Positions 5,120-63,661 of a DNA stretch of 64,000 bases are shown one piece after another. Within the stretch, counting starts at the first letter, position 1, and each line of letters begins with the position of its first letter. Source of the stretch: Macrostomum lignano (lineage: Eukaryota). Location of the stretch: the NCBI GenBank assembly GCA_002269645.1, contig NIVC01000874.1:124001-188000 (forward strand), read 5' to 3'. Below the pieces are notes generated by a model. It ran no database searches. It was not told the DNA's origin and was given only the letters and a program-made list of their open reading frames with translations. Position numbers and translations under genes: made by a program.

Positions 5120-8100
5120 CTGAAATTTAAAGAATAATTAACACTGATATTTTGACAGCGTGACAGATCGCATTTCAATGCACTTCAAATCTCACCTCGA
5201 CCGTCATGAATCTCGCGAACTCGGACGCTGTGGGCATCCATGGAGTCGTAGTCCTTCCTCATCAGCAGAGCCAGCACCAACCCGACAGCCAACACTTTCA
5301 GCGGCTGGAGAAGCAACACCGTCTCGAAAAAGGAAAAGAAAAACGCAAGCAACCAGCCTTCCGACTTCTCCTTGCCCCAGTCCATTGCGTAGAAGACAAT
5401 GAACACGCCGGCAGTGAGCACACTCAAAACGAGAAGCACCCAACCAACGTACTGGCACCAGTGAGGCAGAGAGAATTTAGAGATCCAGGTCTTCTCTTCC
5501 TCCTCAGCCTCAGTCTCATCCTCGGTCGTCGCCGCATCGCTGTTGATGACGCGGCGACTTCGACTCGACTGAGGTCGGTACCGCTGCGCAGCTTCGGTAT
5601 GTTGCGGCTGTCGCTTGGACTTGAGAAACAGCAGGACAGTCGCCATGGACACGGGCAGCACTGTGAGCGCACCGAGTATTGAAGTGATGAGGGAGCCGTA
5701 GGAAACCTTCACCGGTCCGATTCGGAAGGCCTCCGACGAGCTGTCGGCGACTTCGTACCTGTATAATTCAGGGTAAATCAGGAGGTTGCTGTATTTCATT
5801 ATAAACTGGGATACGTTGAAGTTGGATAGTACACCAAGTTCGCTCATACCACATGGCATTAGCGATCATCGTCATGAAGAGTAGACTCCAGCACACTCCG
5901 AGACGCTGCAATCGACTGAAGTTTGTGTCCACTTTCCGTCGCAGCATTGAAAACCAGATGTGGTCATCCTGCATCCGTCTGCTCAGGTGGTTGCGGACGA
6001 GATTCTTTGAGAACTTGAGGTCGAGCGATGAGGCACAGTTGACAGCAGAGTCGATGCCCGGACTCAACCAGTCTTCAATCACAAAGATGTACTTGTTGTC
6101 ATTGGTGCAGTCTGTGACGATCAGGCGACTGACGTACCATCGGCCGGCACCGGACTCGGTCTTGTCAAATGTCAGACAGATGGATCGAATGTCACCCAGA
6201 TGCGCTTTAGTCGTCATCAGGAAGTTGTCAACACCTCCGCTTGCAAAGTTCTGTAAAGTTAGCATTAGTAACTAAGCAAAAAATCAGTATACCAGGAATC
6301 CAGAAATTCGAAAAATAAAGAAACAAGAAGTTCACCCATCTCTCTCCGTCATCCAGAGTTCTCAGTAGCTCGCTCGCATTCAGGCCTTTAACTGAGATGA
6401 AGACTCCAACAGGGACTTCATAGCCTCTTTTCGACCCGTTGAATACCTCGATTTTGTAGACGAAGCCCTTCTGCTCCCGCTCGTCTTTCAGGGGCAAAAA
6501 TTGAAACTGAAATGAGAGATGACTCACAGTGAGTCAAGTGGTTTACAAGACATAAAACACGACTCATCAGAGCTGGGCTGACTGCTCACCTTCTGTGCGT
6601 CCCGCAGGTCCATTCGTCTCAGTAACACTGCCAGAGGAATGAACAGAACCCACAGAACGATCACAACAGACAGCACTGCCCTGCTTTCGCTCAGCTTGCC
6701 CTGCCAGTTTTCGAACAGCTCGCCGAAGTCGATCGTGTTGGGCACGAATGAGATTCCAGCTCCAATGCTGCCGAATAGGTTCACCTTGAAAGCCGGCCTC
6801 GCCACCGCCGTCTGCTCGCTTGCCTGAAAGTTAGAGTGATCGATTTGCAAATCAGACTCGAATTCTAGCTCTAAAATTGTGAGCTCGACTGTCACTTAAG
6901 TCGTCTTACCTGGCACTTGGCGCTATCCAACAGGCGCCACTCGTCGACCCCGCTGTCCCATGCGTAGCACTGTTGAGTGGAGATTCCCAGATGATACAGC
7001 AAGGTGCAGTTGCTGCAAGTCAGTGAGCCAGACGAGTCCCTTGAGCAGCCCAGCTTTCTCACTCCTACGAACACCGTTTGGTTAATTGAGAACATATCAG
7101 CTGGAATGAAAATCAGCTCCTTTGTTGCGGTGTCATTCGTCGAGTTGAGTGACTGCGGCACTACTCGGTGGAGAGTGTAGTTAAGAGGATCTGGCGCGGT
7201 GCCTTCGTGCAGGAAAACTTCGAGCTGATGTCCAGCATCGGGTTGGATGACGAGCTGGACGACCTCTCCTGTTGCATTGAAGCTGTGATACATCATGAGC
7301 CACTTGTCAGTGGGAGTCTTAGCCACTCTGAGCAGCGGTACCTGAGCTCCGGCCAGCTGCATCTCATAGGTCGGAGAAGAGGAAGCTGACCGCCTTGATC
7401 TGCCATGGGATGGTGGAAAGTCGTAAAAGCTGCATCCTTGCGATCGTCCACGAAGGAAAGACGTTGTGACTTTGGACTCCGACTGGCTCCAGTGGTACGG
7501 ATCGGCTGCGCTCATCATGAACGTGATGTTGCATTTGCCGGACGGATCTGCCGCGCTAAACCTCGGCAGTGAGACGCTTCCCATATCTGTTTCCACCTTC
7601 GCTCCAGTGACATTTGCATCCTGAACGTCCTGCGTTATGCCCATTAGAGCGAACCCGGGTTCGACCTTCGTGAAGTTGCTGACAGACTCAAGCGCTAGAA
7701 GCCCGATAGAGTCAATGCAGTCGAGGGTCTTCAGCATGACACCTTTGACCATGCTGCGGTTACTGTAGTTGCCAGCCCAAAATCCAGAGGCATTCCAAAT
7801 GCTCAGCCCTGATTTGAGTAGATTGTCCTGAATTTCTTCGCTGGCTTTGTGCGACAGGTTCGCTCTTTCGATACGCGCTTGTTCGATGACTTTTCTCAAA
7901 GTTTTTGCTGCAAGTTCCTATAGGGATCGCGGAAAAAAATGCAAAAGTTCGAACTTTGCGTATTGTAGTTTAATTAAAAATTATTACCTGTCCAACGACA
8001 TCCAACTGGCTTGATGTATTCACCCCAAGTCGCAGCAGGCTTGTTGTCATTTGCAATGCATCCGAGGAGAAGTTAAACGGAAAGGCGTCAACAAACTTTA

Positions 8101-11100
8101 AATATTTCAGTCTCATCTGCAATATTTTACAGGATAGCCAAATTTTCTCTTTCAGTATTGACAATTTCACTGAACGGAAAATTATAATTTTTCATTGATT
8201 ACCGTCGCCATCTGCAGCTGGAATGCGGCCAGATCCTCTGGAGACAATGCTGCTCCTTGGGCATCTTCGTTCCAAGCATTCATGGCCAGCGCGATTGACT
8301 TCAAAGTGACTGCCGCGGCGCTGTAGTCACCGGAGGACAAGAACCTGCTGACTATCGAATTGGCAGGATCCAGTAGGCCTTCTAAATCAGAAAGCAACTC
8401 GCTTGATGTGCCCGTCAGAGCCGAAATCTAAAACATTGACAGCATTTCTTGTTCTAGTGGTTCTTTCTAGACCAAAAATTTGATTAAAGATTCAGTGAGC
8501 AAGGCTTTCAGACTGACTGAAATGTTGACGGTGAAGATCGCCTCTGCGTAAAAAGAATCCGTGATTTTAAACTCAATGCTGCCCAAGCCGTTGCTTGCTC
8601 CGACAGGCAGCAAAACAGTTGGAAAACTGGCGCTACTAGAGTCGAATCGAGTCGGCGACTCAGTCGGATCCCACCGGAAGAGTGTTGCCGAGTACGCCAG
8701 TGGAGCAATGAATGCTCCGAATTCCGTCCAGTTGGCGCAGGTCAGATGGGCCAGCGTCCTTATGTTAACCACTGAAGTAAATATAGATGAAATACATACA
8801 GGAGACCAGATCTGTTTCAGAGTTGAGTCACACAATGCTTGCGATCCAATAAAAATTGTCTTATGGGTCAGAAAATCTTAAGGAATGGTAAACTTTTCTC
8901 ATCTTTAATAAGACGCTGCACAAAATAAAAATAGATAGGTGCAAAGCAATCTGCAAAACTGGTATTAAATTGCTAGCACATACCTCCAGGAGGATCCACG
9001 CGACAGGTACCACCTACTGGAGGCCCATTCACGGTTATGTTGGCAACAAGGTATGAAGTCTCTTGACCCAGATTCCACAGCTGTCCCATCACTCTGTAGT
9101 AGGAGCTCTCCATCAGTGTGCCAGCCGAAATCGAGAGCTCCTGGCCATCGCTGCTTGACTGGCGAGTTCCCTCGATCTCGTCTCCGCTGACACCGAGCCG
9201 AACAATCGTCAAGTTGCTGCTCACGGTAAAGAACTTGTGGCCACAGTTCTGCTCGCACACAAGTCTGTAGACGAGCGGTCTCTTGGCGACAACTTTGGCT
9301 CCGCAGTTCTGCTCGCAATCAAGTCGGCCTACGGGCTTCGGTTGTGACTCAACAAACACAGTCTTTGATTGCCAAACCTCTCTGGTGTCTTTTGTAAGAC
9401 GGACTCGGAACACATAGCTTGCGTTCGGAACAAGATCGAATGAGTTCACAGTGAGGGATCCCGCAATGGATGCGTTTCCCGAGTATACGACACCGGGTCC
9501 GTTACCGAAGCAGCCTCTCAGCTCTGAGAGCGCTCTGGCTTCAGTCTGCGATGGGATGCTGATGGTGTTGGCTGAGTCTGACTCTTCAGGCCTAAAGCAG
9601 CTCCACTGAAACGTCATGCCGCTAAGATCTCCATCTTCCACGTCAAAGTCCGTGGCCGTCGCAGACGCATTTAGCACGAAGGTCTGATTGAATGAAACAT
9701 ATTCCGGACCAGTAATAGCTTCTAGACTCAATGGAGTCTTTGAGACGTTCAGCAATATCCACGCAGTCTCTGCCATAGCAGCATCCACAGTCAGCTCGGC
9801 AGTGAATGAGACATTGTACAGCCCGTATGGCAACATCCGACGCTGAACCAAGCACTGATCGGAGTTGTCAGTGCACAGAGGAAGCTGGGTAGATGATTGT
9901 TCAGCAATGATGGTCCAGTATGTGCTGATGTTGGTCAGCTTGGAGCAGTTGTATGGCGCCACGGCAGTGAGGTTGATTTGCTCGGACCTCCTGATTGTCT
10001 GCACTGATGACACTTGCAATGAAGATGAGTCCGAGTCGAACAGTCTCAGCCTTGGCTTGTAGCAAGGGATGTCAATCACGGTGGCAAATGTTTGCGCCGA
10101 GTCATTGCTCACATTGTTGTAGGCGAAAATCAAGACAGAATGGACGCCTACTTTTGATAGATCTCGCTTCCAGGTGATTCGCAAGTTAGAGGGACTGACC
10201 TGTGTATAGGCTGGACTGTTCGGTGTTGCGATGGAACGGCAGGAATTATGCGCACCGAAAATTTCATTAATTAGGCTGGTCTGATTGTAGTACATGTGAA
10301 TGCAGGTATCGTTTGGGAAACTTGTCATATCAAGCACGAATTCGACCGGCGTGCCAAGCCAAACCGTCCCGTTCGTGCTAAAGTTGGCTATTTTTACAGA
10401 GTCCTTGAGCACAACTATTGAAAAGTTCCGCTCGAGACCATCAATGCTCAATGGGTTCCAGCAGCTCATGCTCACACGCTGAGTTCCAATGGCTTCTACC
10501 GAATATTCGAATGTCACAACTGCGTTTGAGCTGTCCGTCAGGTTTTCGATGAAGATTCTTTTCGATCCGTATGTGGAGAACTCGAAATCGCAAACAACGA
10601 GACCAGCTTGCATATTGGGCTCATTGTTGATGACGAACTCAGCCCCCTCAAACGGCCACAGAACGCTTTGTCTGTAGGTGACGGATACGTTGACCAGTGG
10701 ATTCAGTACAACGATAGGACTGATCTGAGCTGTTTGCCAACTCACTGGGTTCGAGGCGTTGACTATAACAGTGTAGTTTCCTGCAGTTGAGTACGAGTGC
10801 GCCAGCACAGTCTCATTGCTCGAGGCGTACTTGCTCGGGTGAAAGGTAACGCTGTTTGGGCTGGAGTCACCAAATCTTGTTGTGAATTCGACTGAAGTTC
10901 CATTGGACACTCGTATGGTAATACTCAAGTTTTGACCAGGCTGGACAAACACGTGACTGGCATTGGCTGTAAGTCCTGACACTGGCTCATTGCACACCAC
11001 TGTTGAGTTTTTTGCGTACTGACTCACTAGATTCCAGCAGCGAACTGACAGAGTCATTTCCTCAGTAATGAGGTGCGGAGGACACTCAAGAGTCACAGTT

Positions 11101-14100
11101 TCAGTGGATTTTGATGCTGAAACGTATTGGAACTGATTCAGTAGACTGAACTGTGGTCCTGCAGCAAGGTTAACTTTGCAGCTCACATTTGTAGGTACTG
11201 CTCCGGTGTGGGTCACTGGAAAGTAAATGGTCGGTGTTGCGGTATGAAAATATGCCGACTGAGCCACTGCAGCGATAGGATTCTGCACAAGAATTCCTGA
11301 TACAGTTGAGCTCTCGTTGTTCATTGGGCTAGAAGCCAGAACGTGGATGTCATAAACTCCAGGAGCATTGAATGTGTGGGTGATGTTAATGGGCTGTGCA
11401 TAGGACACAGGCTCAGGATGCACAATCACTTGGCTTGTACCATCAGTCATGTTCACCGTGTAGGTGACATCAGTACCATTTTGAACAGTGAGCTGCAGTG
11501 GAAACTGCTCACTTGTGAGCAATACAGATTTATTGATTTTGATTTCAACGCCCTCGATTTCAAATGGTGTGTAGAGCCGAAGCTCAAAGTTTTTCGAGTA
11601 CGCACCACCTGGGTTTGTGCAGCGAACATTTGATGTAACAACCGATTTTCCAGGTTGATAGATGTAAGAAAAGCTAAGCGGAACTTCAAAGTAAAATTTG
11701 ATGTCCTGATAAGATTGTGCTGCGCCTGAATAAAAGGTAAAGGTACAGTTTAGTTTTAAGTATCCTTGAGCTGCAGTTAGCGTACCAAATACAAAGGTAA
11801 CATTGTTTGGTTCCGGCAAGCGCTCGTACGAAGTTGTGATGTTTAACAAGCTGGCTGGATTCGGACTGACCAGGATAAGTTTTGTTTCTTCAAATTGGCT
11901 TATTTCATTGCTGCAACTGTAGTTAACTAAGTATTCGCCATACGGCTGATTTAGCACGTGACTGACGGTAAATCTATATTTGCGGTAGCTGTCAATGCTT
12001 CCATTTCGCTTCCAATTCCATGTGGCGTTGTACCCGTCCTGGATGAATATGACGCAATCCATGTAGGTGCCGGAAATCCAATAGAGCTCAAAAGTAGCCG
12101 CGACGTTAGATAAAGTAAATTGCGGATTCTTTGCTTTTGGCCCAGTAATTTTAAGACCTGAAATTTTAATTTAATCTCTTTTTATAATTTAGTTCATAGA
12201 TTTTCTTACCCTGGGATATTACTAACAATGAGTTAAAGGAGGGGCACAGCAAACCTTACCTGCGCAATCAAAAACTTTTGATATTGTGATGTCCTTCCAG
12301 TTGTTTTCTAAATTTGTGTCCACGTAGCTCGGATTGTCGGAATTGATCATCCCAACACGCAAAGTCACCTGCTCCGTCGTGCACTGCTGGAAGGTTAATA
12401 GGAATGCAGCATCGCATATAACATTGGCAATCTGACCGACCAGCTGAATTCCTTGAGTTCGATCCTTTTCGATGCAGTTGATTCCTTCCATAACTAGCGG
12501 AGCAGTGGATGCATTTTGAAATAGGAATGAAATGTTGGGTTCGAAATTGATGCTGGGAGACAGCACGGGGTCGATCTTCGACCCGCTGAGCAGTCGAACT
12601 CCAAATGAGAAAGACGCGGTGTGGCGATACTCCGGAACCCACGGGTCGGTTGCATTGGGAAGCAGCGCTACAGTCTCCAGCGCAGCGTCCGAAACTGAAA
12701 TCAAATTTATTGCTTTCTGCAATTAGCTACTTACGGGATAGATTGAATAATTTTTCGACAATCTATAAAACAAAGAACTATATCAATAATCCAAATGCAT
12801 TCTAAGCAAAAGTCAAAAGTTCCATCCTCCCAAGATTGCGCGAGGCTGTTATGTATAAACGTATTTATAATCTTATTCTTTAAATACAATTTAATCCTTT
12901 GCGAGAACTTACTAATCGTGCAAAATGTCTCAACCGGATGGCATGCCAAGCTGTTGCTGATGTTGCTCTCCGAGTAGGACGAGTTCACTGAACTCGTTAG
13001 CAGGACACAGAAATGCGTCGTCTTGTTGCACTGATTTTGGCTTATTTCAAAAAGTGGAGCGTGGACGCTGACAGAAAAAGTGTCTCCGCTAGTGTACCCG
13101 CTCTTGAACACTGACTCGTTTGTGGTTTTCAACTCCACGTTAAATACAGAATTGGACAGGCAGAGTTTAGTTTGGCTTTCACTGCCTTCCAGATTCTGAC
13201 AGTCACTTGTTACCAGATACAACAGTGCCATAAAGTTGTTTTCATACTCTGAACTCATTATAGGGCTGTTGAGATTCTTAACGAGTACCGAGAGATGGTA
13301 CGACACGGAAACATTTTCATGTCTCACCAAAGGATTCGGACTCAAATGGAACAATGTAAAATTGGATATTTCCGTGTCTCCTATTGGCTGACACACCTTC
13401 ACGCTGTCAATGTCCATGCAGAAAGCGTTATTAGTCGGGTCGGAGTCGCGCACCGTTTCATTTTCCGACGCGCTGAAGCCGATGCACAGGTAGGACGCTG
13501 AGACGCACTGGCCTCCTTCCGGCATCGTGAAGTTGGCGGTTATGACGAACTCAAACTCCTCATAAAGCTTATATGAGCCTTGCAGGTTGCCTTCAATGAC
13601 AGTCACAGGGTTGTGTTGGAGGTAAAACTCCTGGTCAACTGGAGGATACACGCTTGACGACTTGTTCAGAAAGTAAGAGAAAAAATTCGCCAGAACTGTT
13701 GGCGGAGCAGCCTCTGGAATGTCGGCGCTGCCACTTGCGTGCTTCAGACGGATTGTTGCCGTGTACCGACTGGCGCAGCCGCGAACCGGCACTGGGTCGA
13801 AAGTAACGTTAAAAGCAACGATGCTCATGTCCACCGTGATGGTGCAGACTGGCTGGCCCTGGTCTTGAAGATTCGCGCAGCCGCACTGAGGCGTGAGCGC
13901 TGAGCCACGAGGAATGCACACGGTCATATTCTCACTTGAGCACTCGGCATCCATAGTGCACGCATCGCTCACCTGGCCTGATTCTGTTGCTGAATTCGAA
14001 TCGAGATAGGTAAAGGCAAATGAGTTGAGCAATAATTAATGAACCAGAGAGTCTAGCTATATAACGCAACTTTGAGTGTAAACAGTGTGTTTCTCACCCT

Positions 14101-17100
14101 TTGGGATCATCTTCGGCGCAAACAGCCGCATTCGAACCGACACACCGCTTGTCGGCAGGCAGGTCTGGCATCCATCGAGGAGCTCCATTCGAATCTGCTG
14201 CCAGCTTGACAAGATTTTTGCCATCGCACTGACTTTGCCACCACGGTGAGAGCGGCTGGGCACAAGACAGGTTTGAGAACAGGCCGAACTGAGCGTTGTT
14301 CAGCTCAACAAAGGTGTACTCGTCCAGAGTTCCCGTCCGGCAGTCTTTCGCGTGCATCGGGTAGCCGCCCGCTCGAGACCCGACCCACCACTCTTTGCAC
14401 TCGACATACTTGCCGAGTCCCTGCGAGTTCGTGGCCTCCAGCCTCAGTGTCAGCGGCCACTGACTCGCAAAGTATGTCGGCAGCAGCTCGAGGAAGTCGA
14501 GTCCGGTCCAGAAGCTCATCTGGTCAGCTTGCGTGAAGTTGAAGTCCATGGCGGGTCGGCCCAGAGCGAATCCAGTGCGATAGTCGACTGGGGTTCGTCC
14601 GGTCTCCAGGTTCGGGGACAGTTTTTGGTACACGACCAGGGAGTTTCGGAAGCAAGGCAGGGTGGCGGATCCGAGGTAGGGGTGCTCGAGCGTTACTGAT
14701 TGAGTGCCATTGCAGATTGCCTGATTAATCTCTGCAAAGCGTATTGCCAAACAGTAAATGATCAGAATTATTATGAATTTATGTTGCTGGTAATAATGGA
14801 AGCAATTACAAGCTTTGGCATCTTGCCTGTTAGGTTTTTCGCTCGGACGAAAAGATCCATTTTGATTCCTAAGCTGCGATCCCATGTTGTCGTCAACCGC
14901 AGTTTGTCCGTGTAGGCCAGGTTAACGATGAGGTAGTACACCGGGTGAAAATTGTCGACTTCGGTATCTTTACTGGAGCCTGGAACAGAGTTTCAGGACA
15001 TGCGATTAAAGCCAACTCTCTGCTCTCTGTTGAAGTCACTTTTTAGTCAATGAAGAATAAATTAATAATATTCCTAATATTCTTAATAATAATAATATTT
15101 TTGGTACTGAAGCCAATTTTCATTGGTTTTATTTAAACTGAAGGTCGATTCACTAACAGCATAGCTTGCTTGCGATAACGTCATGACGCGTCTGTGGAAG
15201 GAGAGATCAGCAAAGAGGTTGCAGGTACAAAAGCTGGTCGCACGAGGGTATCGATGAAAATTACGGCCCCATCGACCATCGAAGCACAATAATATGGAGT
15301 GCGCGTATCCATGCTTCATGAATGAAGTGCAACCAAAAAACGGACTGACGGCCTTCACTGTCATAGACTAGACTTTTGCGGACTGACCACGATAAATTTC
15401 GTTAAATTAATAATCGGGTGGTAGCCAGCACCATCGACTATAACAACTATATAGCTATTCATTCTAAACTCGGGTAATAAATATTTTTTGCTAAATTGTG
15501 ATTTTCATGTTTTATTTTATGAATTTAAAGGAATGCCATTAACAGTAGAAAGACTACGCTTTTTTTCCCCATGGGGAAAGACCATGGGGGTGTATAACAA
15601 ATACACACAACCAATTTCACCATAGCTCGCAAACCGAATAACCGATTTTCGTAAAAGTCCACCATTTGGGTCAAAATTTCCCCCCTTTCCAACGAATTAA
15701 CTTTCAAAGTCATCCGACGTCAGCATCGTCGAGATATTCAACGATTCTTGTCGAAGACACTGGTGGCAAGGACAACCAACACTACACTGTATAAACCTTT
15801 ATAGTGAATCCATATTGGCTCAATAATCTGGATCCATCTGTCGGAGAGGCCTTTCTTCTCAGCATCCAGGAACTAGGGTCCCTTCATCACCGTCTGGAGC
15901 ATCGGCGGCGACCGTCGGACCTTCAACAAAAGCACCCGATCGGCATCGCAGAGACGGCTGCGTTCCCAAAACTGAAATGGAAGAATCCTCTTCTGCATGC
16001 AGCATTCAGTCAGTAGACATAATCGGTGAATGAGATGGATGACGGCGACCCTCTAGGTTGACCTGTAGACATACAAGCGACCTTCGGGACCTTCAACGGA
16101 GTGCCACCACGCGGCCCCGACGAACTGGCACCCCCAACATCGTGAATTTTCTGTCAAGGCACCAAACCAGGCATGTCTGCATATTATACAATGGTCCTGC
16201 ACCATGTTCAGCATTCAGCTCTGTCTGGACGACCTTCGGGACCTTCAACGGAGTGCCACCACGCGCCCCGACTAGCTGGCACCCCCAACATCGTGATTTT
16301 TCTATCAAGGCACCAAACCAGGCATGTCTGCATATTATACTATGCTTTTGCACCGTGTTAAATTGGAGAGTTGCAGATTTAACTGGCCCAAAGCGGGCCG
16401 AAACGTGATGTTGCTGTCCACCATGCATCACGACAGACAATTGCTTCCCAATGGCAAGCCTGTAGCAATAGGCTCGTACTACAATTCTACCAAGAGTGGC
16501 ACGGACACCTGCAACAGGATATTCCGCACATCCGACTGCAAGCGAAAGTCCGACTCATGTGAGAAGGCAATCTTCTCCGGCGGCATACTCAACATAGCAG
16601 CTGTGAATGCCGCTGCTATCTGGAGACTGGCGCACCCGGAGCTCTGCGCCTCGCCGAACTATCGCAACGAGTTCCAGCGCAATGCGGCTGCGCAACTTCT
16701 GCAACCTCTGATCGAGGAGCGCTCGCAATCGGCCGCTGTTCTTCAAAATCTGTCCAATCATCACAGGCTGATGTTCCAGCTCGCAGGTTGTCGAATCAAC
16801 GACGAGCAAATGAAGGAACAGGCACGCAAAGCGTGGCTGTGGTGTCAGTTGGTGCCAGAAAGCACTGTGCAACATGCGCGAGACAAAAGTCAAAGGATGA
16901 GAAGCGTGCCTTGAGTGCGACAACAAGGAAGTGTTGCATGTGTGACGAAGGAATTTGCCGAAGACACTGCCATGGAAGAGACAGTGATCGTCACCATTAC
17001 TGCCCACGTTGTGCACCAAATTAAATAGTGACAATTGACTCAGCCTTTGTGTCTATGTGTCAGTGTTCAGATCCTTCTGCTTTGAATTTGCTGTAATATC

Positions 17101-20100: not shown

Positions 20101-23100
20101 TCATTTTCAGATGCTGAAATTCAGAGTTACGTGTATGAGAGTTGTTGCAAAGGAGCTGAAAGTTTAGCCCCAACTCCTTGCACATCTGCTCTATTAAATG
20201 GTAAAACTGCAAAACTTCAAAACTTGCTGATTGAATAGCATAGTGAACATGGGGAGAAGTCAATCGAATGCTGTGCAGGTGAGGCACAGACCAACTTGCA
20301 TTTTGAAGCTGTTGATTTTTCAGTCACACAAACGAAGCAGAGCATCGACCAGAAAATCCTTCGGACTATGGGATCAGCGCCAACGACATTTCATTCTGGC
20401 ATGTCAACGGCAGGGAAAACGGCAGCCGTGACAATGACGAAGTATATGTTTCGAATGGCACCTTTTGGCATCAGCTCTATCTCTGAATATTACAACAGGA
20501 GACTGGACAGTGTTCTGCATGGTTTTAAAGATACTCGTGGACGACTGCATAGTTGCAAGCGCCGACTACGACAGCCACGTCCAAGCTGTTCGTGAATTTC
20601 TTAATCGATGTGACGAGAGCGAAATCGCATTAAATAAGAAGTTTGTCTTCGCCAAAAAAATGTCAAGGTTGCTGGATTTTTGCTTTCACAGAACAGCTAT
20701 CAGGTGGACCCAGACATGACAGCAGCCATTGCTCAATTTCCAGAGCCACCTAATATTACAGAATTACGTGCATTCATGGGCTTAGTGAATCGGATAGGAC
20801 CATTCACAGACTCGATCGCGGAATCTACCTCAACGCTAAGACCTCTTCTAAGCACAAAAAAATCATCCATCTGGAATGAGGAGCACCAAAAGGCCTTCGA
20901 TAAGGCACGAATCCACCTGTCCAAAATTCTATCTTTGGCATACTACGATCACATAAAGCATTGCACACAGATGCTTCAAGATTGAAAGGACTCTGATTCG
21001 TGGCACATGGCGAATGGTACAAGCTGGATCTCGATTTCTAACTGATGCAGAAACGCGACATGCTATGATTGAGCTCGAATTGCTAATAATTGTATGGGCT
21101 GCACAAAAGTGTCATCTATTTTTAGAAGGATTGTTGGCGTCATTTGAAACCGTGACGGATCACAAACCACTTATTCCGATCCTAAATAGCTATCAACTGG
21201 ACCAAATTGAGAACCCACGGTTACAGCGCCTTCGCGCCAAGCTTAATCGTTATAACTATGATGCTAGATGGGTTCGAGGTAAAGACAACGAAGACGCCGA
21301 TGCACTATCAAGGTTCCCCATTGCAAATGCGACTGAGGAAGACCAGATTGACGAGAGTCAAGCGGTAAGCAGCGTGAATTTACTTATGATGGCAATAGAA
21401 GATACGGAAATTGATGTTAAGATGAAAAAACTACAAGAACAAGTGAAGAATGATGCAGAAATGCAAGACCTTATCCGAGTTATCGAGAATGGAAATGGAT
21501 TTCCAAACGACAAAGCTAATCTGCCAGTTAATCTAAGACCATATTGGCACGCCAGACATAAGCTCGTTGTCGAAGATGGGATCATTCTCAATGGATGTCG
21601 ATGCATAATTCCTAAAGACATACAACGAGAAGTTTTGAGAACTCTGCACGCGAGTCATCAAGGTGCTACTAAAACCAAAGCAAGAGCAAGGATGACAGTC
21701 TATTGGCCCGGCATGGAACGTCAAATAGATGACACAATAAAACAATGCAAGGCATGCCAAGAAAAAACCGGCCAAGTCAAACCAGAGAGTCGATGATGTA
21801 GAGAAATCCACCAGGAAGGTGTTTCCAGGAAGTTCACGCGGACTTTTGTGAATTTCGTGGCAGGCAATTGCTAGTGATAGTGGATTGCTACTCAGGCTGG
21901 ATCAACGTCTGGAGTTTCGGACAAAACGCTCCGGTTTACAAGCTTATCAATGCATGCCGTGAGCTATTTCGTCAGACAGCCGTACCGGAATCCTTCTGGT
22001 CAGACTCAGGCTCTCACTTCAAAGCCAACGTCTTTGTAAATTTTCTGAAGAGATGGGGAGTTGAGTCCAGATTCTCATCGCTTTACCATCACCAAAGCAA
22101 TGGAAAGGCTGAATCCGCAGTTAAGTCTGCCAAGAAGATTATCAGAGGATCTTGGGACTATCGAAACAACGACATAGACAAGGGCAAGATGGCACAAGGC
22201 ATTCTGTAGAAGAGTCTTGGCCGAATCAGAATTGGCTCGACTGTGGTTCTACAAGACCCGACAACCAAGCTGTGGCAACGGAGGGGCGTGGTGGTGGAGG
22301 TAGGCAAACACCGCGACTACCTGATCAAGCTAGCTAATGACCGAATACTACGGAGAAATCGTATCTTCGTCCGGCCAACACTACCATGGAACGCCGATTA
22401 TCTGCAACAGGCGACTAACAAGCTAGTGAATCAAGAACATACCAAACGGACAATCAGAGACTTGGGGATCAGAGGCCACCGGAGAGACCTCGCGTTAGTG
22501 CCAGGTCGACAAAACATCCCGCCAGTTCGGTTTCAGTACAGCCGACTGGGGCAGCCGAAAGTTCAGTTTCTTGAGTAAATAAGGAACAATGACTTGAAAG
22601 GGGAGTTGGTGTAGATGATAATACCGTAAGTATATGGCCCTGACCTAAAGCCTACGTGCTAAGAGACAGGGCGAGAAAATATATAGAATCAACTTGGCTC
22701 GCCATCAGAGCAAGCCCAACATTGAAATAGATATAACAAACAGCAGCCACAGATGCCAGAGGCAACCTTACAATTTTGCGCACGTCTGCCGCATCTGTGA
22801 GGCTCCGCACCCGGTAGTGTTGTAGAAATTGAACAAGTCAGGCACACAACTAACACTAACACTCCCCCTAATGATGCTTCATCATTACAACAGACTTGAT
22901 AACTAAAAATGAAACGCACCATCACCAGAATACTAAGTTATCAAAAAAGCAGAAACACAAAAGGCGCAAAGCGCAAAAATGTAAACACCGTCACCAGCGT
23001 ACTGTAAATTAGAGAAAACCAAATGTTGCGTTGAGAAGTGTGCTCACAGAGCACGAGAACGATAAGCTAGGATAAGAACTTGAAGATTGAAACTAAGGAG

Positions 23101-26100
23101 AGATAAAGACTGAGAACTCAGATGTCAATAATCACTGTCAGTTTTAGAAAAGTTAAGAACAGTTCATTCAGTCACGGCTTCTAGCAAAATCAGGTTCTCA
23201 ACCGGTCGGCGAGTCAAGCATCTCCTGGGTCCGCGGCCTGGCTTTTGCGCGACTCGAACTGTTGCCGATCTCACTGCTCCGTCTCGTCCCGGATGCACCG
23301 CCTCGATAATGCCAGTACACCAGGTAAGCCTCCGTTGGCCAGCTTCGCCTTTCACCAGGACGATGTCACCGACCGTCGCCTCTCGGATCACGCCATGCTT
23401 GGGATTGAGCCGATGTTCACGCAGGCTGGTCAGATATTGCCGCTCCCAGCAGTCCCAGAAGGCGTGAAGTCTGGCGCGCATTCGCTTAAGCAGTTTTGGC
23501 AACGGTAGCAGAAGATCTGGTGCGCAACTAGAAGTAGGCTCCGCCGCCAGCCGCTGCAACACCAGGAAGTGTGCCGGTGTCAGAACTTCTCTTTCGGGTT
23601 CGGCATCCACGTAGAGCAGAGGGCGGCTGTTGAGCACCGCCTCTACTCTACTTCCATGAGCACAGTCAGCAGTTCATCCAGTGTGAGACTGGAATTTAGG
23701 AGGGTCTTGCGCAGTGCCAGTTTTATATCCTTCATCAGTCTCTCCTTGAAGCCTCCTTGCCAAGGAGCGCGTTCGGTGATGAACTGCCAGGTGATCTTTC
23801 GTGTGGCGCAGAACTCTTGGACCTTTTGACTCTCTGATGCTTGCAATATCCGCGCGGCTTTGGCGAATGTCTTAGCGTTATCGCTGATGAGACTAGGGAT
23901 ACCTCTCCCGCATAGAATCTCCTTAGGGCTCTTAAGAAGGTTTCAGTTGTTAGATCATTCACCAGTTCTTGATGAAGCGCTCGCGTTGCTGCGCAGGTGA
24001 ACACCAAGATGTAGCCCTTCTCGACAGCAGTGTCCTCTCTCAGCTTGACCGGACCACAGTAGTCGAGCCCGCTCCACTCAAACGCTCTCATTGCTTTCAC
24101 GCGAGATTCTGGCAACGCAGGAACTTGCTTCACAGCAAACGGGAGCCCCTGAAGACGCCTGCAGACGACGCATTTTCCAGGAATTGCCAGTAGTAGGAAA
24201 ATGGTACGGTCTGGCCCACGTCGCTGATTGGCTGGCCAATCAGCGAGGGGGAGCCAATCAGCGATGAGGAGGCCCCGGAGGCGGGGCGGGACAGGCCGGA
24301 GGTGGGAGTGGAGCAAGCCCAGTAGTGGGGTCGGGCAGGCCGGATTAGGGGGTCGAGCAAGCCTAGGAGTGGGGTCGAGAGCAGGCCCAGGGGTGGGGTC
24401 GAGCAGGCCAAGGTGGGGTCGGGCAGGTGGGATGAGGGGTCGAGCAAGCCAAGGGGTGGGGTCGAGCAGGCCCAGAGGTGGGGAGCAGGCCAGATGAGGG
24501 GTTGGGTAGCTGAGTGTCTGGCTGAGTGTCCAAGGGTAAGTTGACTGAGTGTCCAAGGTGGGTATCGAGATGTGAATGAGTGTCCACTGGGGAGTGTCCT
24601 CTACCGCGTGTGGTGACATGCAAGACAGAGTTTCAATGTGATCGGTCAACGGGTAGAGGGTCCGATTGCGAATTTCCAAGTAGAGAGGGGTAGAGATTCT
24701 ATTGGTCGAGAAAGCATTTGAAGTGATTTCCCCGGAATTTCCGAGTATAATTTGGGGAAGGGATTCTATTGGTTCTAGAGGTCCCTGGTGCACAATTTGA
24801 TTGGTCAACACACCCCGCGAGAGAAGGGGTCCAGTACCCTTTATAAGCAAAGCATCTTGCGCTCGCTAAGCTTCATGCAATTTTTAAAACGATTTCTGAT
24901 GGCGTTCAAAGAGCTACTACATGGTTATTGCATCAGCCTGGTGCCGGACACACGGACCATCAGTATTAGAAAGTGGTTCAAGTCTGGCGAGGATCATCGG
25001 CCAGGTCTGCCCGGCATGGAGCTCACCATTCATCAATTCCGATACCTGGCCAGCTTGAAAGAGCGCTTGGAAGAATTCTCTGACAGGAAACTCGATGCGC
25101 AATGCCTTCTGGGTGGCAACAGACAAGTGGTGGTCAAAGATAGTGCAATCTCACTCTGGCGCCTTCCAACAGTGCTCGGCTCCGTGCTGCACTTGAGACA
25201 TGCCCTGCCGCTACCAACTGAGCAATGGCGACAGCTGTGGCAACACAGGCTATGGATATTGGAAGAACTCGAAAGACCCGCCAACCCGTGGTGGCTCGGA
25301 AACTACCCCTCGGAGCCCGAAGAGTGCGCGGAGTGGGCGTCGAAACTCTCGATGGACCAGCTGGCGACGTGGCCAGAGACGCAGCCAGCAGAGTGGGATG
25401 ACCATTGGGAGGCATGGCAGGCAGTCCAGACCGAGTTCCACAAACGCTATGTGCCATCAGCGGAGCCCAGCCAGCAGGACCCGCGGGAAAGGTCGTCATA
25501 GAGGTGATAGTCTTGATGCGAATCTTGGGCAGACTGGTCAATCGCAAGAAGCATTTTTATTGGTCAGCAGACCCGAGTCAGATATTTTGAGAATCTTGAC
25601 TTTTGTCCAGATGGTCCGATTTTCGAGTGAGTGGGTTTCTATTGGTTAGAAAACTTTGGTGTCGGTGCAATGAGGCCCAAAATCTATATAATCAAGGCGC
25701 CTGGGCTATTTGAGGCTCAGTTAGTGTACCTTTATGACTATACAAAATTTAAGCTGTTAATTTACCATGGCTCACCAATATCAGATAAATCAGATAAAGA
25801 AAATTATTCAATGCGGTATTTGCCTGAACGAATGTTCGGATCCACGGGCACTACCTTGCCTGCACACCTTCTGTGCTCACTGCATTCATGGCTTGCCGCG
25901 AACTCAGCAGATAATGATTAACTGTCCAATGTGTAGGAGGCTTTGCGAACTGTCTGATCCGGCAGCTTTGCCAAAAAGCTTTTACTTTGAACAGCTTAAG
26001 ACAGTTGTCGCAACTTTTAACTTACAACCATCGACGTTGCCAGCAAGGGAACATGCTGGTTTTGGTCAATCACCAAAATATATAGTGGAGATATTAGGGT

Positions 26101-29100
26101 GATGGAGATTATCTCCCCTAATCACTTCTACTGCATCCTACCAGAAACTCCGCCAACACAGTTTCTACCTACGGAACTTTCGGGTCTGCTCAGTCTAGCA
26201 GAATCCGACGACGTTGGGGTAAACGAGATGTATGTTGGCCGCTTTTCCCGTGCGCTATGTCACAACGTCGACCGGTATTACCGCATGCGGATTCTAAGCA
26301 TAAATGTGAGCACTAACACTGCCACGGTGCTGCTAGTCGACTATGGTCAGATCGATCACTCGAAACCCATGTCTGAGATCTACCGGCTAAAAGTCCTCGA
26401 TCCTATCACGGCAATGCTAATGAAGCACCGGAACGCGCGATACGCTGCCACCTTCGCAGCATTAGCGCCTGCCCGCCGTAGGCAACTAATGACGCGGCCT
26501 GCTCTGGACCACTCCTAGGATTGATCGACCCCCTAATCCGGCCTGCCCGACCCCACTACTGGGCTTGCCCCACCCCTACCTCCGGCCTGCCCCGCCCCGC
26601 CTCCGGGGCCTCCTCATCGCTGATTGGCTCCCCCTCGCTGATTGGCCAGCCAATCAGCGACGTGGGCCTGACCGTACCATTTTCCTACTACTATTGCCTT
26701 CACTCGTTGCCTACCACGGATAAGCCAAAACTTCTCACGCAGTTTGCAAAGGGTGCTTGGAACTCCCCCGTGCAGAACTTTGCTGTGTGCGTCTCGGATG
26801 AGGAGAACTTCTAGATGAGTCTTGTTCGGGATAAGGATGGGGCAATCAGCAGCTGCACCAACGTTTGACTCTCTCAATCGACCCCAACTTCGGAGCAGAC
26901 CTTTGTTGTCGAGGAAGAGATTCAGCTGCTTTGCGAGATCCATAGATGCTGTCGAACTTTCAAAGTGAGCAATCTCAGCATGGAAACTCCTTCGTTGTAC
27001 CTCTTTCAGCCAACGCTCCTCTGCTTCTGACACTTCTGCAGCTGTCAGAGTTCCTGCTCGCTCCTCCCCCGCTGCGGAAGTTCGAACTTGCAGGCTCTTG
27101 ACAAATCAAAAGACGTAAGCCGTCACCCTAATGAGCTTGGTCCAGGAGGAGAAATCCGAATCTGGTATAACTCGATGCAGTCCCAAGTCCGGAACAACAT
27201 CAGTGAGTAGGACGATTGATTTGTCTGCGGATGACTTCTGCTCCTCGTCTGCCGTTGCTGAGGTTAAATTGAGAAAGGATTGGTTAGGCCAGCTTTCTGG
27301 ACTGCTTGTTCCGCGGCGGCTCGAACTGAAGCGCACACCTCCGCGTACTCGGCACCTCCATGCTTGCCGCTCAGCGCAGTGATGAAAGCGCTAGCAAAGC
27401 GGCTGTGCTTGTTGGCGTCACTGAGCGCGTGGTAGTAGCGCCGCGGTGGCCGCTTCGGCGAACGGTAGAGCGGATCACGAAGACGAAGGTCGCAGACGAG
27501 GAGTCGATAATCGGACCGCAGAGCCAGAGGCGTGCGTGATGGCGCGGCAATTGATGACGCGGCGGCGCTCGCGGAAGCGCACCAGCACATGATCGAGCTG
27601 TGCCTGCCTCCGTGTTGCGTTCCGGCCTCACGCATTCCGCCGCCTGCGCTTGTAGCCCACAAAAGTTGCGAGCTTGCCCAGCGGCTTGCGGAAACAGGTG
27701 TTGGTCGACACCATGTCCTGCCTCTCTAGGAAGTCCTCCAGCGCTCCGGTTTTGTCGCTCTCACGCAGTGTGACGAACAGTGACCGCTCGGACCTACGCA
27801 AAACCACGTTAAGGTCACAAAGGATTATCACTGGGTCACGCTGCGCCGTTGCCTCCTCCACCTGTACCGAAAGCTGCTCGAAGAAGTCTTGAGCCTCATC
27901 AGGACGGGTGGAAGGGGGCGCATACGCGCAGAACAGGCGAGCGTTCCGGCCTCGAAGCCGGACGTCGACCCAAAGCAGCTGAGGGGACAGAGAGACGCAG
28001 CGACAGCTCTGCTACAGCCTCGGTCCGACCAGCGCTCCAACTCCTCCACGACCTCGTTGGTCCGCCAATGTGTAGTAGAGGGTCCATCCGGCGCCCAGAT
28101 CCTCACAGTGAAGCCCGGATCAGCCTTGATAGACACCTTCTGCAGTGCGATGACGTCACAGCTTAGGTCGAGCGCCAGCTTTGCCAGAGCCCCTCTCCAC
28201 CAGGCAGCCTTGAGCGTGCGGTAGTTCAGCGTCCCAACCCAAAGCGTGCCCTGTGGTACGGCTGGGGCTCGATGTAGATAAGCCTCTCGGTCCCAGGCCC
28301 CAGAAGATCCGTATGGGCCAGCGCGGCAGCAGCTCGACGGGCATCACCATGTCGCCAACCGCGCCGATTTCGCTCACGCCGATGCTCAACACGCTGACGC
28401 TCGCTCCGCTGCCCTCGCTTCGTCCTGCCGCTGTTGGCTGTCGCAACATTTAAGCGCGGCTCATCGCCTTGACGACTCGGAGGTCGCGGCATTTACTTGC
28501 ACCAAGGTGCAAATAAATTAGGACGTGCAAATAAATAAAGACATATTTGGTGGCCATCTTCATGTTCAAGGAGCGGCTCGAGAACAACCGATCACCCTAA
28601 ATCTGGAAAACAGCGCGGCGGTGGTAACGCAGCCATCATGACCCTGCTGCAAACTTGCAAACTGCCACTCTTGCTGCACTCAAGGACAACATCAGCTTCT
28701 GTGAGTTTTACATGCAGGGTGCCTGGCAGCTGCTCAGTGACCCGCTCTCACGGGCGCTCACCCACCTTCGGCATTTTCTACTCTTTCTGGTGCAATTCTA
28801 CGGCACCCAGCCTTGGTCTGTGGAGGACAAGACTCCTGCTGCCTTAGCTACCGCGTCGCTGATCAATTGGATGTGCAACTTTGGCAGTGCGTTAACAGTA
28901 TTTTTTTCTGCCTTTTTATTTTTTAGGTTTAGGGTTGCTACCGTCCCCTTTCGTGCCAATGCTGCTCTTGTACTCGTATTTTAGGTTTAAAATGTAAAGC
29001 AATTATCTACCGTGATATGAACGACCCAAAGGTGACCTACGAGAGCATTCTCGGATGATGGCAAATCGCGGGACTAAAAACTTAAGTTGAATTTACTTTT

Positions 29101-32100: not shown

Positions 32101-34112
32101 TGTTGTGCACAACATTGCTGGCGCCATCGAGGAAAGTGACGGTCATCGTCTGCGGCTGCGTGCAGTTGGCTCCCGTCAGAGTCAAGTTGGTCAGGTGGTA
32201 CAGTTCCATTAGGAACACGGTCTGGAAAGAGTGTGCAGTGCTGAGCGCCACGGATGTTGAGTTGATTTGCACCGGGATCGGCTCAACCAGTCTGTATCTC
32301 TCAATCGGCGGGCACTCTGAAAGTGGCGTTAATGTGAGACTTGACTGTGATCTGAAATTACTATTGGCTGGATGATATGGCAGTTTAGCTAAATTACATA
32401 TACGCAAATTTGCTTATTTTACTTCTCATGCATATGCATGAGTGAGACAGGATTTTACCATTTCTGTCCTGAACTTTCACTGTACACTCAAAGTCATGTC
32501 TTCCCGCTTCATGACGACAATTCTGTTTTACACTGCAAAAGTGCATTTTCCTCACCAGCGGGCAGACCGATGAACTCGATCTTGATCGACTTGTTGCCAA
32601 CGAAATCCACCGGCGTGAGCTTCAGCACCCTGGCCTGGATGCTGCCGTGTGGCAGCGAGTAGGTCTGGTTGATCATGTCGCTGCTGTTGATGCCCGGCAG
32701 CAGAGCCGGTGCGCTGGCCCCGTAGGTCTGCAGCGACTCCAGCAAGCTGCCGTAGGCCAGGTGAAACGTCTTCACGTAGATTTCCGGCGAGTCCTGGCCG
32801 ATCACGTAGCCCCAGATGAGGTTGGCGAGGTCGAACTCGAACAGCAGGTAGTCGGAAGCGGCGAAGCCGTTGTTGCAGGACTGGTTGGCCAGGCTGGGCT
32901 CGCCGTCCGTCGACCAGCTGAGCTTCACGGCGACCGGCGGAAACTCGGCGTACGAGGCGCCCACTGCGCTGACCTGGTGCGGCCCGTAGGTCACGAGTGG
33001 CTGATCATCGCCTGCAGGTGATTGGGACTCGCTGCAGGTGATTGGGACTCGCTGCAGGTGATTGGGACTCGCTGCATGTGATTGGGACTCGCTGCAGGTG
33101 ATTGGGACTCTCTTGCAGGTGATTGGGACTCGCTGCAGGTGATTGGGACTCGCTGCATGTGATTGGGACTCGCTGCAGGTGATTGGGACTCTCTGCAGGT
33201 GATTGGGACTCGCTTGCAGGTAATTGGGACTCGCTGCAGGTGATTGGGACTCGCTTGCAGGTGATTGGGACTCGCTGCATGTGATTGGGACTCGCTTGCA
33301 GGTGATTGGGACTCACTGCAGGTGATTGGGACTCGCTGCAGGTGATTGGGACTCGCTGCATGTGATTGGGACTCGCTGCAGGTGATTGGGACTCTCTTGC
33401 AGGTGATTGGGACTCGCTGCAGGTGATTGGGACTCTCTTGCAGGTGATTGGGACTCGCTGCAGGTGATTGGGACTCGCTGCATGTGATTGGGACTCGCTG
33501 CAGGTGATTGGGACTCTCTTGCAGGTGATTGGGACTCGCTGCAGGTGATTGGGACTCGCTGCATGTGATTGGGACTCGCTGCAGGTGATTGAGATTCACC
33601 TGATTGGGATTCATCTTTAGGAATGGGTTTGTGAAGAGCCTTGACTCTTCTCGGACTCTCCGCCGAGAGAACTTTATTTGAAGTAAGCATTGAAAAATTT
33701 GCGCATGTCAAAGCTGTCAAGCATCGGGCTTTTCAATATTGAAATCGACAACCTAAAATACAAAAATTCCATGGTCTCTACATGTAAAATTGACCATCTT
33801 GGAGGTTGTGGAAGGTACCTTAAACCACCTCCTACATCTAGTGGGAAACTCAACTAAATGACTTACTTGGTAGGGGATAAAAATCCGAACGATCTGACGA
33901 AAAAACTAACCTAAATGCAATTGATTCTACTCGTAATAATCAGCCTTCAACTACGAGTTGCGTCCTTGATGGAAGCCCCCACAACCGGTGGCGCCCCCTT
34001 GCCTCAAACTCAAAAGCCGCTTACCGAGCACGGCTGGCAACAGAAGCGCGGCAAGGCAGCAGGCCAGGAAGGCCAGCCGAGCTGATCCGGGGCTGTTGCT
34101 GCTGGATGGCAT
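3263..34112 (-). CDS. Polycystin-1-like (PKD1L/REJ family) receptor-channel, ~24 exons; full gene model including the distal 5' exons
   Basis: Ordered minus-strand domain exons: signal peptide (34025-34112), F5/8C (32556-33011; 32096-32367; 31868-32009), C-type lectin (29587-29994), 29189-29466, then ~15358 down to 3263 (PKD/REJ/GPS/PLAT/channel). Splice phases are compatible wherever checked. The join across the 15.4-29.2 kb intron is the least certain step. Confidence 0.6.
5197..6830 (-). CDS. Polycystin-1-like GPS end, TM1, PLAT/LH2 domain and TM2-5 exons
   Basis: FVPNTIDF followed by a TM; YKIEVFNGSKRG; FASGGVDNFLMTTKAHLGDIRSICLTFD...WYVSRLIVTD...WLS (PLAT); DDHIWFSMLRRKVDTNFSRLQRLGVCWSLLFMTMIANAMW, a typical PKD1-family motif. 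Confidence 0.92.
6910..8835 (-). CDS. Polycystin-1-like REJ C-terminal part and GAIN/GPS exons
   Basis: VLLPVGASNGLGSIEFKITDSFYAE (REJ end); CYAWDSGVDEWRLLDSAKCQ (GPS first half) ending at a CAG|GTAAGA donor near 6910. Confidence 0.85.
8985..12160 (-). CDS. Large exon with PKD (Ig-like) repeats and REJ module
   Basis: ORF 8973..12062: HTFNAPGVYDIHVLASS, HSYSTAGNYTVIVNASNPVS (PKD repeats); LNASATATDFDVEDGDLSGMTFQWSC, NGPPVGGTCRVDPP (REJ). Confidence 0.9.
12258..15358 (-). CDS. Polycystin-1-like extracellular exons (Cys-rich / Ig-like repeats with DxDxxNN-type motifs, lectin-like segment)
   Basis: ORFs 12222..12722, 12731..14032 and 14094..14885 lie on the same strand, separated by short AT-rich introns. 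Repeated motifs DSDPTNNAFC / ESNISNSLAC / DTNLENNW. Exons near 14826-14985 and 15140-15358 are tentative. Confidence 0.7.
15543..18014 (+). mobile_element. Non-autonomous piggyBac derivative with TTAA target-site duplication and long internal inverted repeat
   Basis: TTAA at 15539-15542 and 18015-18018. Terminal IR CAGTAGAAAGAC, plus the AAAGACCATGGGG(G)TGTAT motif near both ends and subterminal GCATCGTCGAGATAT(T/C)CAACGATTCT at both ends. Internal transposase C-terminus at 16390-17024. Confidence 0.9.
16390..17024 (+). pseudogene. piggyBac transposase C-terminal fragment with cysteine-rich domain
   Basis: VMLLSTMH...KPVAIGSYYNSTKSGTD...RKS...IF..ILNIAAVNA..W...RNEF (PGBD-type). The second frame gives RKCCMCDEGICRRHC...YCPRC (C-terminal Cys-rich domain). 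Confidence 0.88.
20380..22609 (+). mobile_element. Decayed Ty3/Gypsy LTR retrotransposon pol (RT, RNase H, integrase) ending in a polypurine tract
   Basis: FRMAPFGISS...VDDC (RT); SRFLTDAETRHAMIELELL...TDHKPL...NEDADALSR (RNase H); LHASHQG...YWPGM...CKACQ (integrase Zn finger); VDCYSGW...SDSGSHF...HHQSNGKAESAVK (core). Multiple frameshifts and stops. PPT GAAAGGGGAG at 22596-22605, then TG at 22610. Confidence 0.93.
22610..22861. repeat. LTR-like TG...CA segment between the convergent Gypsy and BEL/Pao bodies
   Basis: Begins TGTAGA right after the plus-strand PPT. Ends CTAACA immediately before CTCCCCCT, which is the minus-strand PPT AGGGGGAG followed by TGTTAG. Confidence 0.55.
24875..25501 (+). 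CDS. Intronless cargo ORF, PC4/Sub1-like ssDNA-binding fold (possibly two tandem copies)
   Basis: ISIRKWFKSGEDHRPGLPGMELTIHQFRYL aligns by eye with the PC4 motif IDIREY...G.MKPG.KGISL..EQW..L. A second LPLPTEQWRQL segment follows. TATA-like TTATAA at 24841, ~30 nt before the ATG at 24875. Confidence 0.55.
   Translation: MQFLKRFLMAFKELLHGYCISLVPDTRTISIRKWFKSGEDHRPGLPGMELTIHQFRYLASLKERLEEFSDRKLDAQCLLGGNRQVVVKDSAISLWRLPTVLGSVLHLRHALPLPTEQWRQLWQHRLWILEELERPANPWWLGNYPSEPEECAEWASKLSMDQLATWPETQPAEWDDHWEAWQAVQTEFHKRYVPSAEPSQQDPRERSS
25767..26480 (+). CDS. RING-HC finger + extended Tudor cargo gene (RNF17/Qin-like architecture in miniature), with two apparent -1 frameshifts
   Basis: CGICLNECSDPRALPCLHTFCAHCI...CPMCR (TRIM-type RING). 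The overlapping frame, open from 26021, gives DIRVMEIISPNHFYC...RYYRMRILS...VLLVDYGQ (Tudor). A further shift near 26424 gives APERAIRCHLRSI, the conserved extended-Tudor P..AI.C.L motif. TATATAA at ~25685. Confidence 0.8.
27306..28260 (-). mobile_element. Decayed non-LTR retrotransposon AP-endonuclease region (RTE-like), 3' truncated
   Basis: LWVGTLNYRTL...CDVIALQ; xAP motif; IILCDLN...DFL...NTCFRK...TF; QLDHVLVR, across frameshifted minus-strand frames. Confidence 0.8.
29189..29994 (-). CDS. C-type lectin domain exon (29587-29994) and following Cys-containing exon (29189-29466)
   Basis: CPASSFYFNGQCYF...LCAG...GRLFLP...HLGLVRDGSGW...WSFW...VICE. Phase-1 AG/GT junctions match the flanking exons. 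Confidence 0.8.
30990..31330 (+). mobile_element. Fragment of a non-LTR retrotransposon C-terminal zinc-knuckle region
   Basis: SHGCFARHRNL...ECPFCLSRVENAEHFICEC matches the GH...C..C...E...H....C motif found at LINE ORF2 C-termini. Confidence 0.6.
31868..33011 (-). CDS. Discoidin (F5/8 type C)-like domain exons: 32556-33011, 32096-32367, 31868-32009
   Basis: YLLFEFDLANLIWGYVIGQD...YVKTFHLAYG...PGINS...IQARVLKLTPVDFVGNKSIKIEFIG. A second partial copy ends NAARFRVY...FKLHGC. Splice phases are consistent (1, 0, 1). Confidence 0.78.
33012..33597. repeat. 20-22 bp intronic minisatellite (GCAGGTGATTGGGACTCGCT)
   Basis: Direct tandem array; it generates spurious RVPITC/ESQSP ORFs. Confidence 0.97.
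34025..34112 (-). CDS. First coding exon with signal peptide
   Basis: MPSSSNSPGSARLAFLACCLAALLLPAVL followed by a G|GTAAGC donor. Confidence 0.7.
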
Positions 34113-63416: not shown

Positions 63417-63661
63417 GGCTGAGCTGTGTGACACTGCCCTGCTCAGCTGGCAATTAACTAGTGCATGAATGCAACGGTACTAAATAAATAAATTTTTGTT
63501 AACATCCATAACAAAGGACAGAATAGCTAAGGGGTTGATATGCTCATATATACAATATGAGCATAGGGAATAAAATAGGGAATAGCCCAAATAGAGCACT
63601 AAGGATATATATATATTTAACAGGGTGCAGTAGCTTTGGGGTTAACAAGAATCATGCTTGG

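Follow-up and report, generated by a model that had tools for sequence, protein, structure and literature searches.

A broken RING–extended-Tudor gene in a deletion remnant of a Macrostomum lignano Polinton

The 64,000-nt stretch of the Macrostomum lignano genome analysed here (contig NIVC01000874.1, positions 124,001 to 188,000; the window) contains a 2.5-kb element of the Polinton/Maverick type, at 24189–26692. It lies inside another element, which we take to be of BEL/Pao type from its motifs and from its naming in an earlier note on this sequence. Read from left to right, the mini-element is made up of a terminal inverted repeat (TIR), a promoter, a PC4-like gene, a scrap of a TBP-like gene (25478–25551), a junction, a second promoter, a cargo gene for a RING and an extended Tudor domain, another junction and the second TIR. 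The element is what internal deletions have left of one of the genome's Polintons. The cargo, broken here, would seem to be a former functional accessory ligase of these Polintons, predicted to target a protein of germline RNA silencing, a reading to which we give a probability of about 0.55.

Anatomy of the element and its Polinton relatives

The TIR arms occupy 24189–24372 on the plus strand, beginning AGTAGT, and 26509–26692 on the minus strand, ending ACTACT, as found by comparing the two; each measures 184 nt, close to the ~190 bp of the earlier note, and they are 96% complementary with 7 mismatches. They are flanked by the 6-bp target-site duplication (TSD) ATTGCC that the note had reported, at 24183–24188 and, by direct reading, 26693–26698 (both plus strand). 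Vertebrate Mavericks are described as having ends of the same kind, TIRs with the motif (AGT)2//(ACT)2 and TSDs of 6 bp (PMC8097293). The boundaries had originally been placed by the restoration of the integrase HHCC (zinc-finger) frame of the BEL/Pao element on excision, and natural copies agree: six of eight other BEL/Pao copies carry a single ATTGCC with both flanks contiguous, an empty site through which the frame is open in four, and in the remaining two copies the left-side match stops short. The interrupted element is on the minus strand, with pol sequence upstream of the insertion at 26693–27725, including the start of the integrase (Pfam Integrase_H2C2, E = 9.7e-5), and the integrase region downstream of it at 23164–24188. 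Repeat comparison also revealed GC-rich 44-bp subterminal repeats at 24283–24483 (plus strand).

Each of the two units is preceded by a TATA-like motif and an ATTGG/CCAAT box, in agreement with the earlier note. The PC4-like gene has two TTCTATTGG boxes, at 24697 and 24764, and a TATA-like motif at 24840 (24697–24847, plus strand), the same layout being found 5' of a terminal gene in a relative (L083), while the cargo has one TTCTATTGG box at 25637 and a TATA-like motif at 25683 (25637–25692, plus strand), with the same motifs 5' of the cargo in L077/L078. TTCTATTGG occurs five times in the window, against 0.58 expected, and five was reached in none of 100 shuffles; the 9-mer is also found outside Polintons. 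The plus strand of the element contains no AATAAA or ATTAAA.

The PC4-like open reading frame (ORF; 24899–25501, plus strand) is open over 200 residues and is a native gene of the Polinton family, which has lost its natural C-terminus to a deletion at 25477/25478. In profile searches it stays under the Pfam cut-off (E = 0.0097, 15.8 bits against 25), a family member (L080) exceeding it with 26.7 bits. A structural search with a predicted model of the window ORF (pLDDT 71.5) finds MoSub1 and human PC4 at a probability of 0.99–1.00 and with TM scores of 0.64–0.81 over the target, though the Foldseek E-values are weak (0.015–0.15) and Plk4 polo boxes rank alongside. The PC4/Sub1-like fold proposed in the earlier note is therefore supported by this model and by Pfam in L080. 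Unlike PC4/Sub1, one chain of the window protein seems, from its secondary structure, to hold two PC4-like units.

A scan of ORFs with Pfam found no pPolB, integrase, ATPase, protease or capsid gene within 24189–26692. The genome-wide match counts given here, like the searches for copies of the cargo, are lower bounds. A DNA search of the genome with the element gave at least 107 matches, and among the matches listed only one, L031 on contig C759, has the same layout; none repeats it at an independent insertion site. As L031 also shares the left flank, it represents the same insertion, so that counting copies, as the earlier note had proposed, leaves a single site. L031 has a stop in the PC4-like gene and lacks the outer right end, but at 25477/25478 it carries 376 extra bases that encode the full C-terminus of the PC4-like protein and more of a convergent TBP-like gene, with 94% identity to the sister family. 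What remains of that gene in the window after the 376-bp deletion is the stretch 25478–25551 (minus strand), which shows 93–96% identity to its counterpart in L101, L104 and L105, where Pfam recognises TBP. The note had counted only two units in the element; both are present, but the TBP-like remnant and the deletion were overlooked.

Polintons are abundant in this genome, with at least 119 matches to pPolB, and matches to the PC4-like protein number at least 151. A 14.3-kb family member (L101–L102, TSD CCTACT), whose first 12 bases are identical to those of the window element, has in order a PC4-like gene, a TBP-like gene, two unnamed genes, an ATPase, a protease-like gene, two likely capsid genes (called from size and position, with no Pfam match), an integrase with a chromodomain, pPolB and one further unnamed gene. 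Relatives of autonomous type, which the note had suggested looking for, are present in the genome. Closer relatives, L035/L090 and L046/L034, are ~82% identical in DNA over the left half of the element; they are decayed, with PC4-like, TBP-like and broken pPolB genes, L035 and L034 containing broken pPolB or integrase, and one of these sites has the TSD CGTACG. Among relatives with paired ends, 10 of 12, or 9 of 11 distinct sites, show 6-bp TSDs, the length that the note had named as the one to expect; of the other two, one has no TSD and one (L103/L104) has inverted rather than direct flanks.

Since the PC4-like gene is present in full-length members, it is a standard gene of the family and not a substitute for replication machinery. 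The element is a non-autonomous Polinton/Maverick derivative, as its end motif, TIRs and TSD and the sequence it has in common with elements encoding pPolB and integrase indicate, and to this extent the earlier description stands; a satellite with these genes in place of replication machinery is not supported. Whereas full-length relatives in the same genome retain pPolB, integrase, ATPase and protease-like genes, no core gene is left in the 2.5-kb element, which has kept a PC4-like gene together with a TBP-like scrap and the broken RING-Tudor cargo. It is an internal-deletion remnant with two junctions and not a purpose-built satellite. Non-autonomous Polintons as such are already known.

Some features of the family were observed in passing. 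At least two subfamilies (L079–L086 and L101–L106) hold both TBP-like and PC4-like genes, a small transcription kit, with Pfam TBP matches of up to E = 1.6e-21; the adintovirus paper mentions TBP-like genes in the legend to a figure (PMC8502044). In L081–L082 and L085–L086 the PC4-like end is duplicated in inverted orientation at both termini, with no pPolB in the stretch examined, which suggests fold-back or template-switch products. From L091:5440 to L092:3392, a member of the window element's family contains a nested Polinton that belongs to a different subfamily and is flanked by a separate 6-bp TSD. Exact matches to the 21-base terminus (L051–L070) run into long tandem arrays, possibly TIR-derived satellites or non-coding derivatives; the Polinton proteins tried gave no match in 20 stretches at 11 such matches.

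The RING-Tudor cargo, its copies and an intact relative

The two domains of the cargo are encoded in different frames. The RING part (C3HC4; Pfam zf-RING_UBOX, E = 3e-7) is a 111-residue ORF at 25767–26102 (plus strand) that leaves the frame in the linker, and the extended Tudor part (Pfam TUDOR, E = 1.8e-6) lies at 26066–26490 (plus strand), within a frame open from 26021 to 26518, with a second frameshift near 26420. Similarity to an intact relative described below, P0003, ends at about residue 222 of 293, so that the extended Tudor is truncated at the right TIR. Both domains named in the earlier note are recovered by profile search; they do not form one intact ORF, a point that the note had proposed to check.

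At least five copies of the cargo were found, at three sites (window/L031, L036 and L077/L078), and all five are broken, an outcome on which, according to the note, the counter-defence idea would fail, here for the window copy. At all three sites the cargo adjoins Polinton sequence, being joined in L036 to a PC4-like gene and left TIR and lying in L077/L078 ~1 kb behind pPolB remnants. Both cargo lineages carry the family's layout of TTCTATTGG and TATA-like motif and have no introns. The point at which the linker breaks differs between the two lineages, which fits decay from a gene that was formerly uninterrupted. Contigs of sequencing runs from two studies (X1 record 8, without differences, and X5 record 32) show the linker frameshift as well, and it is thus not an error of assembly. 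An intron in the linker was considered and rejected, since by eye no GT-AG pair common to both lineages restores the frame, and no joint across the linker was seen in four sequencing runs. Low-depth contigs cover parts of the element in three runs that we guess to be RNA, and give no evidence of expression either way. As read from its frames, the window copy is a fossil and cannot encode a fused RING-Tudor protein. In a second, unrelated Polinton family a short RING-only frame lies near one end (L098:5176–5418, L100:6092–6334, and also L097 and L099), and a RING search of the genome returned many frames of this kind, of 105–108 residues.

The earlier note had taken the element for an active satellite, still mobilised in trans and expressing a decoy or ligase for PIWI proteins. 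Intact TIRs and TSD, the open PC4-like and 111-residue RING ORFs and a RING protein sequence that the window and L031 share without a difference over 98 residues would fit such a satellite; the single insertion site, the 7 TIR mismatches, the frameshifted and truncated cargo, with its linker frameshift again in the X1 and X5 contigs, and the plus strand devoid of AATAAA and ATTAAA speak against it. For the window copy this reading is largely refuted, and we regard it as very improbable.

An unbroken relative was found by a HMMER library search that gave 77 matches. P0003, encoded on a contig of 1,014 nt from publicly available run data, is a 293-residue protein with a RING and one extended Tudor domain, ~40–55% identical to the cargo copies, and its C-terminus matches the ends of L077/L078. 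RING and Tudor share one frame only in P0003 and in none of the five copies. Word-based protein searches with the window Tudor gave no match among 118 and 1433 candidates, and P0003 itself had just three other matches, all RING-only, among 1176 candidates; viral and metagenome contigs contained no match to it. Comparison with the sequences of solved structures gave nothing significant. A model of P0003 is poor (pLDDT 43), with weak top matches to the Tudors of PAPI, TDRD2 and Qin (E ≥ 0.026).

Comparison of the cargo lineages points to past constraint. Between them, the RING has a ratio of replacement to silent substitution rates (dN/dS) of 0.09 (over 57 codons, with saturation of synonymous sites in two other pairs) and the Tudor one of 0.18–0.23 (105–110 codons), similar to the 0.11 of the PC4-like gene between sister subfamilies. 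Plain DNA alignments show an excess of third-position differences in all four comparisons, which are not independent of one another (p = 5e-4 to 5e-8). Taken together, the low dN/dS, the family promoters in both lineages and the existence of P0003 indicate that the cargo gene once worked; as judged from these substitution patterns, purifying selection formerly acted on it as a functional gene, and this part of the earlier reading now stands on firmer ground than the note could give it.

Origin of the domains and possible role

Among host RINGs the best match, 54–58% identical, is encoded by exon 1 of a TRIM-type gene with the RING-B-box-coiled-coil build (L087), for which an Atlas feature search gave a lead (0.89). 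The Tudor is best matched in the host by the final domain of a gene with two Tudors, P0004 (48–49% identical). In a Tudor tree of 22 rows (L031 and L078 omitted as near-copies, 16 of 75 other matches used, no named RNF17 or Qin) the final Tudor of P0004 falls into one branch with P0003 and the element copies (100/100 support); a RING tree did not resolve the donor.

The note had likened the cargo to the piRNA-pathway factors Qin/Kumo and RNF17/TDRD4. The likeness holds in that an N-terminal RING is followed by an extended Tudor (10.1101/2021.10.25.465661), and an Atlas feature search of P0003 ranks RNF17 clusters first (0.81, again a lead). The cargo differs, however, in having one Tudor domain, as does P0003, rather than five, a RING closest to a TRIM-type gene, a Tudor closest to a separate gene and an incomplete aromatic cage. 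Because the closest host RING and host Tudor belong to separate genes on different contigs, the Qin/RNF17-like layout is likely to be convergent. A candidate host RNF17 gene, assembled from a RING and Tudors on C1476, was rejected, since by eye NHL-like repeats follow the RING exon and a helicase-like motif follows the Tudor. The genome also contains, on C263, C266 and C4554, very long open frames (1211–2287 residues) in which numerous Tudor domains repeat in tandem every 630 bp.

Several observations weigh against the view that the cargo served Polintons as an accessory ligase. No intact copy was found in the genome searches, and none of the full-size members examined has the gene. The orientation of the cargo relative to the family map is opposite in L077 and in window/L036, and L077/L078 show no TIRs in the stretch examined, where that ~1-kb gap separates pPolB from the cargo. 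The genomic context of P0003 is limited to its short contig; its grouping with the host Tudor is weak (87/82), and a clade uniting it with the element copies obtains p-AU values of 0.52 and 0.33. Since the insertion, the Tudors of the window and L031 have accumulated 7 replacement and no silent differences. Finally, in all members of the cargo family the third aromatic of the Tudor cage is a Leu and the Asn is replaced.

Some of these points would suit a passenger, that is, a RING-Tudor fusion of the host, since lost or unassembled, that was captured once or twice and had been under selection in the host without ever serving the element. The weak grouping of P0003 with the host Tudor and the lack of the gene in full-size Polintons are what it would predict, as is decay within lineages, where the RING appears neutral (dN/dS 0.90, 8 differences between L036 and L077). 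However, amino-acid identity between the element lineages is 58–70%, against 48–58% with any host gene found, promoter motifs of the family type and a lack of introns are common to both lineages, the link to Polintons is seen at every cargo site, and third-position GC content is lower in the cargo Tudor (0.39–0.54) than in the host Tudor exon (0.71). On balance we consider a passenger doubtful.

The altered cage bears on what the protein might have bound. The positions were assigned partly from a published description (10.1101/2021.10.25.465661). The third aromatic and the Asn are kept in 16 of 16 other Tudors and in the host's first Tudor, and the four aromatics plus Asn for reading methyl-arginine are not all present in the cargo. 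Binding of methylated PIWI tails is accordingly not predicted, and a decoy for methylated PIWI is unlikely on these residues. Qin Tudors without a cage do not bind methylated ligands and have other reported activities, and the Tdrd2 Tudor, also cage-less, is reported to bind unmethylated peptides (10.1101/2021.10.25.465661). With the cage incomplete and Tdrd2 as precedent, a methylation-independent partner is the remaining reading.

It is conceivable that the cargo had quite another job, as an E3 ligase or RNA-binding factor in the transcription or virus-like cycle of the element, or against TRIM-type antiviral defence, with no link to piRNAs. These Polintons do encode PC4-like and TBP-like genes of their own, the second Polinton family has its RING-only frame, the cage is incomplete, and other activities are reported for cage-less Qin Tudors (10.1101/2021.10.25.465661). 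Against this, the capture of an extended Tudor points to partners in germ granules, extended Tudor proteins being described as closely linked to the piRNA pathway (PMC12147562), and the cage-less Tdrd2 Tudor reportedly binds peptides that are unmethylated (10.1101/2021.10.25.465661). Such a job would seem quite unlikely.

Small E3 ligases usually combine a RING with a single domain for binding other proteins. For the accessory ligase that we favour, it may be envisaged that a TRIM-type RING became fused to the last Tudor of the host two-Tudor gene and that selection acted while the fusion resided in Polintons. Its product would have been a small E3 ubiquitin ligase directed at a protein that the donor Tudor protein binds independently of methylation, most likely one in germ granules. 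The window element would have been integrated by the integrase of a full-length relative, either in trans or before the deletions occurred. A stronger version, in which Polintons built a miniature Qin look-alike, selected across diverged lineages as a ligase removing or decoying a piRNA-pathway protein, with P0003 as the surviving intact member, we think unlikely.

An anti-piRNA role of the cargo is, from the domains it encodes, possible. If true, RING-Tudor would be a counter-defence against piRNA silencing encoded by an animal transposon; according to a 2019 review, no transposon was then known to encode an anti-silencing factor directed at the piRNA pathway (PMC6719617). VANC of VANDAL transposons is likewise a transposon-borne accessory gene proposed to act against host silencing, but it acts on plant DNA methylation and this was shown by experiment, whereas the role of RING-Tudor is deduced (PMC6719617). 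Cargo genes of Mavericks are known (PMC6431247), and those of nematodes include modular genes of host type, wasp proteases and krma kinases (10.1101/2022.07.12.499685); the present cargo is similar in this respect and differs in joining RING and extended Tudor, without introns and broken in every copy found. The earlier note knew of no description of the combination, and the literature searched, mostly open-access texts, likewise contains no report of a Tudor or RING-Tudor gene in a Polinton; Polinton gene tables elsewhere may list PC4, TBP or RING genes. A RING-Tudor gene under purifying selection in Polinton lineages would be a concrete candidate for an anti-piRNA factor, and the intact P0003 makes the idea testable. 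Even if that role fails, there remain a chimeric E3-type gene made from two host-type genes and Polintons with PC4-like and TBP-like genes.

Surroundings of the element

The BEL/Pao-type element is flanked by what appear, from their motifs, to be a Gypsy-like pol remnant at 20400–22600 (plus strand) and an endonuclease-like fragment of a long interspersed nuclear element at 27628–28343 (minus strand). Long minus-strand frames at 3263–14921 and 32509–33312 resemble polycystin/PKD1-like exons, again by their motifs, and the transposon cluster that holds the mini-element may sit in an intron of such a gene. Further minus-strand exons, at 61860–63479, we take on the same basis to encode an adaptor-complex mu subunit, AP-2 mu-like.

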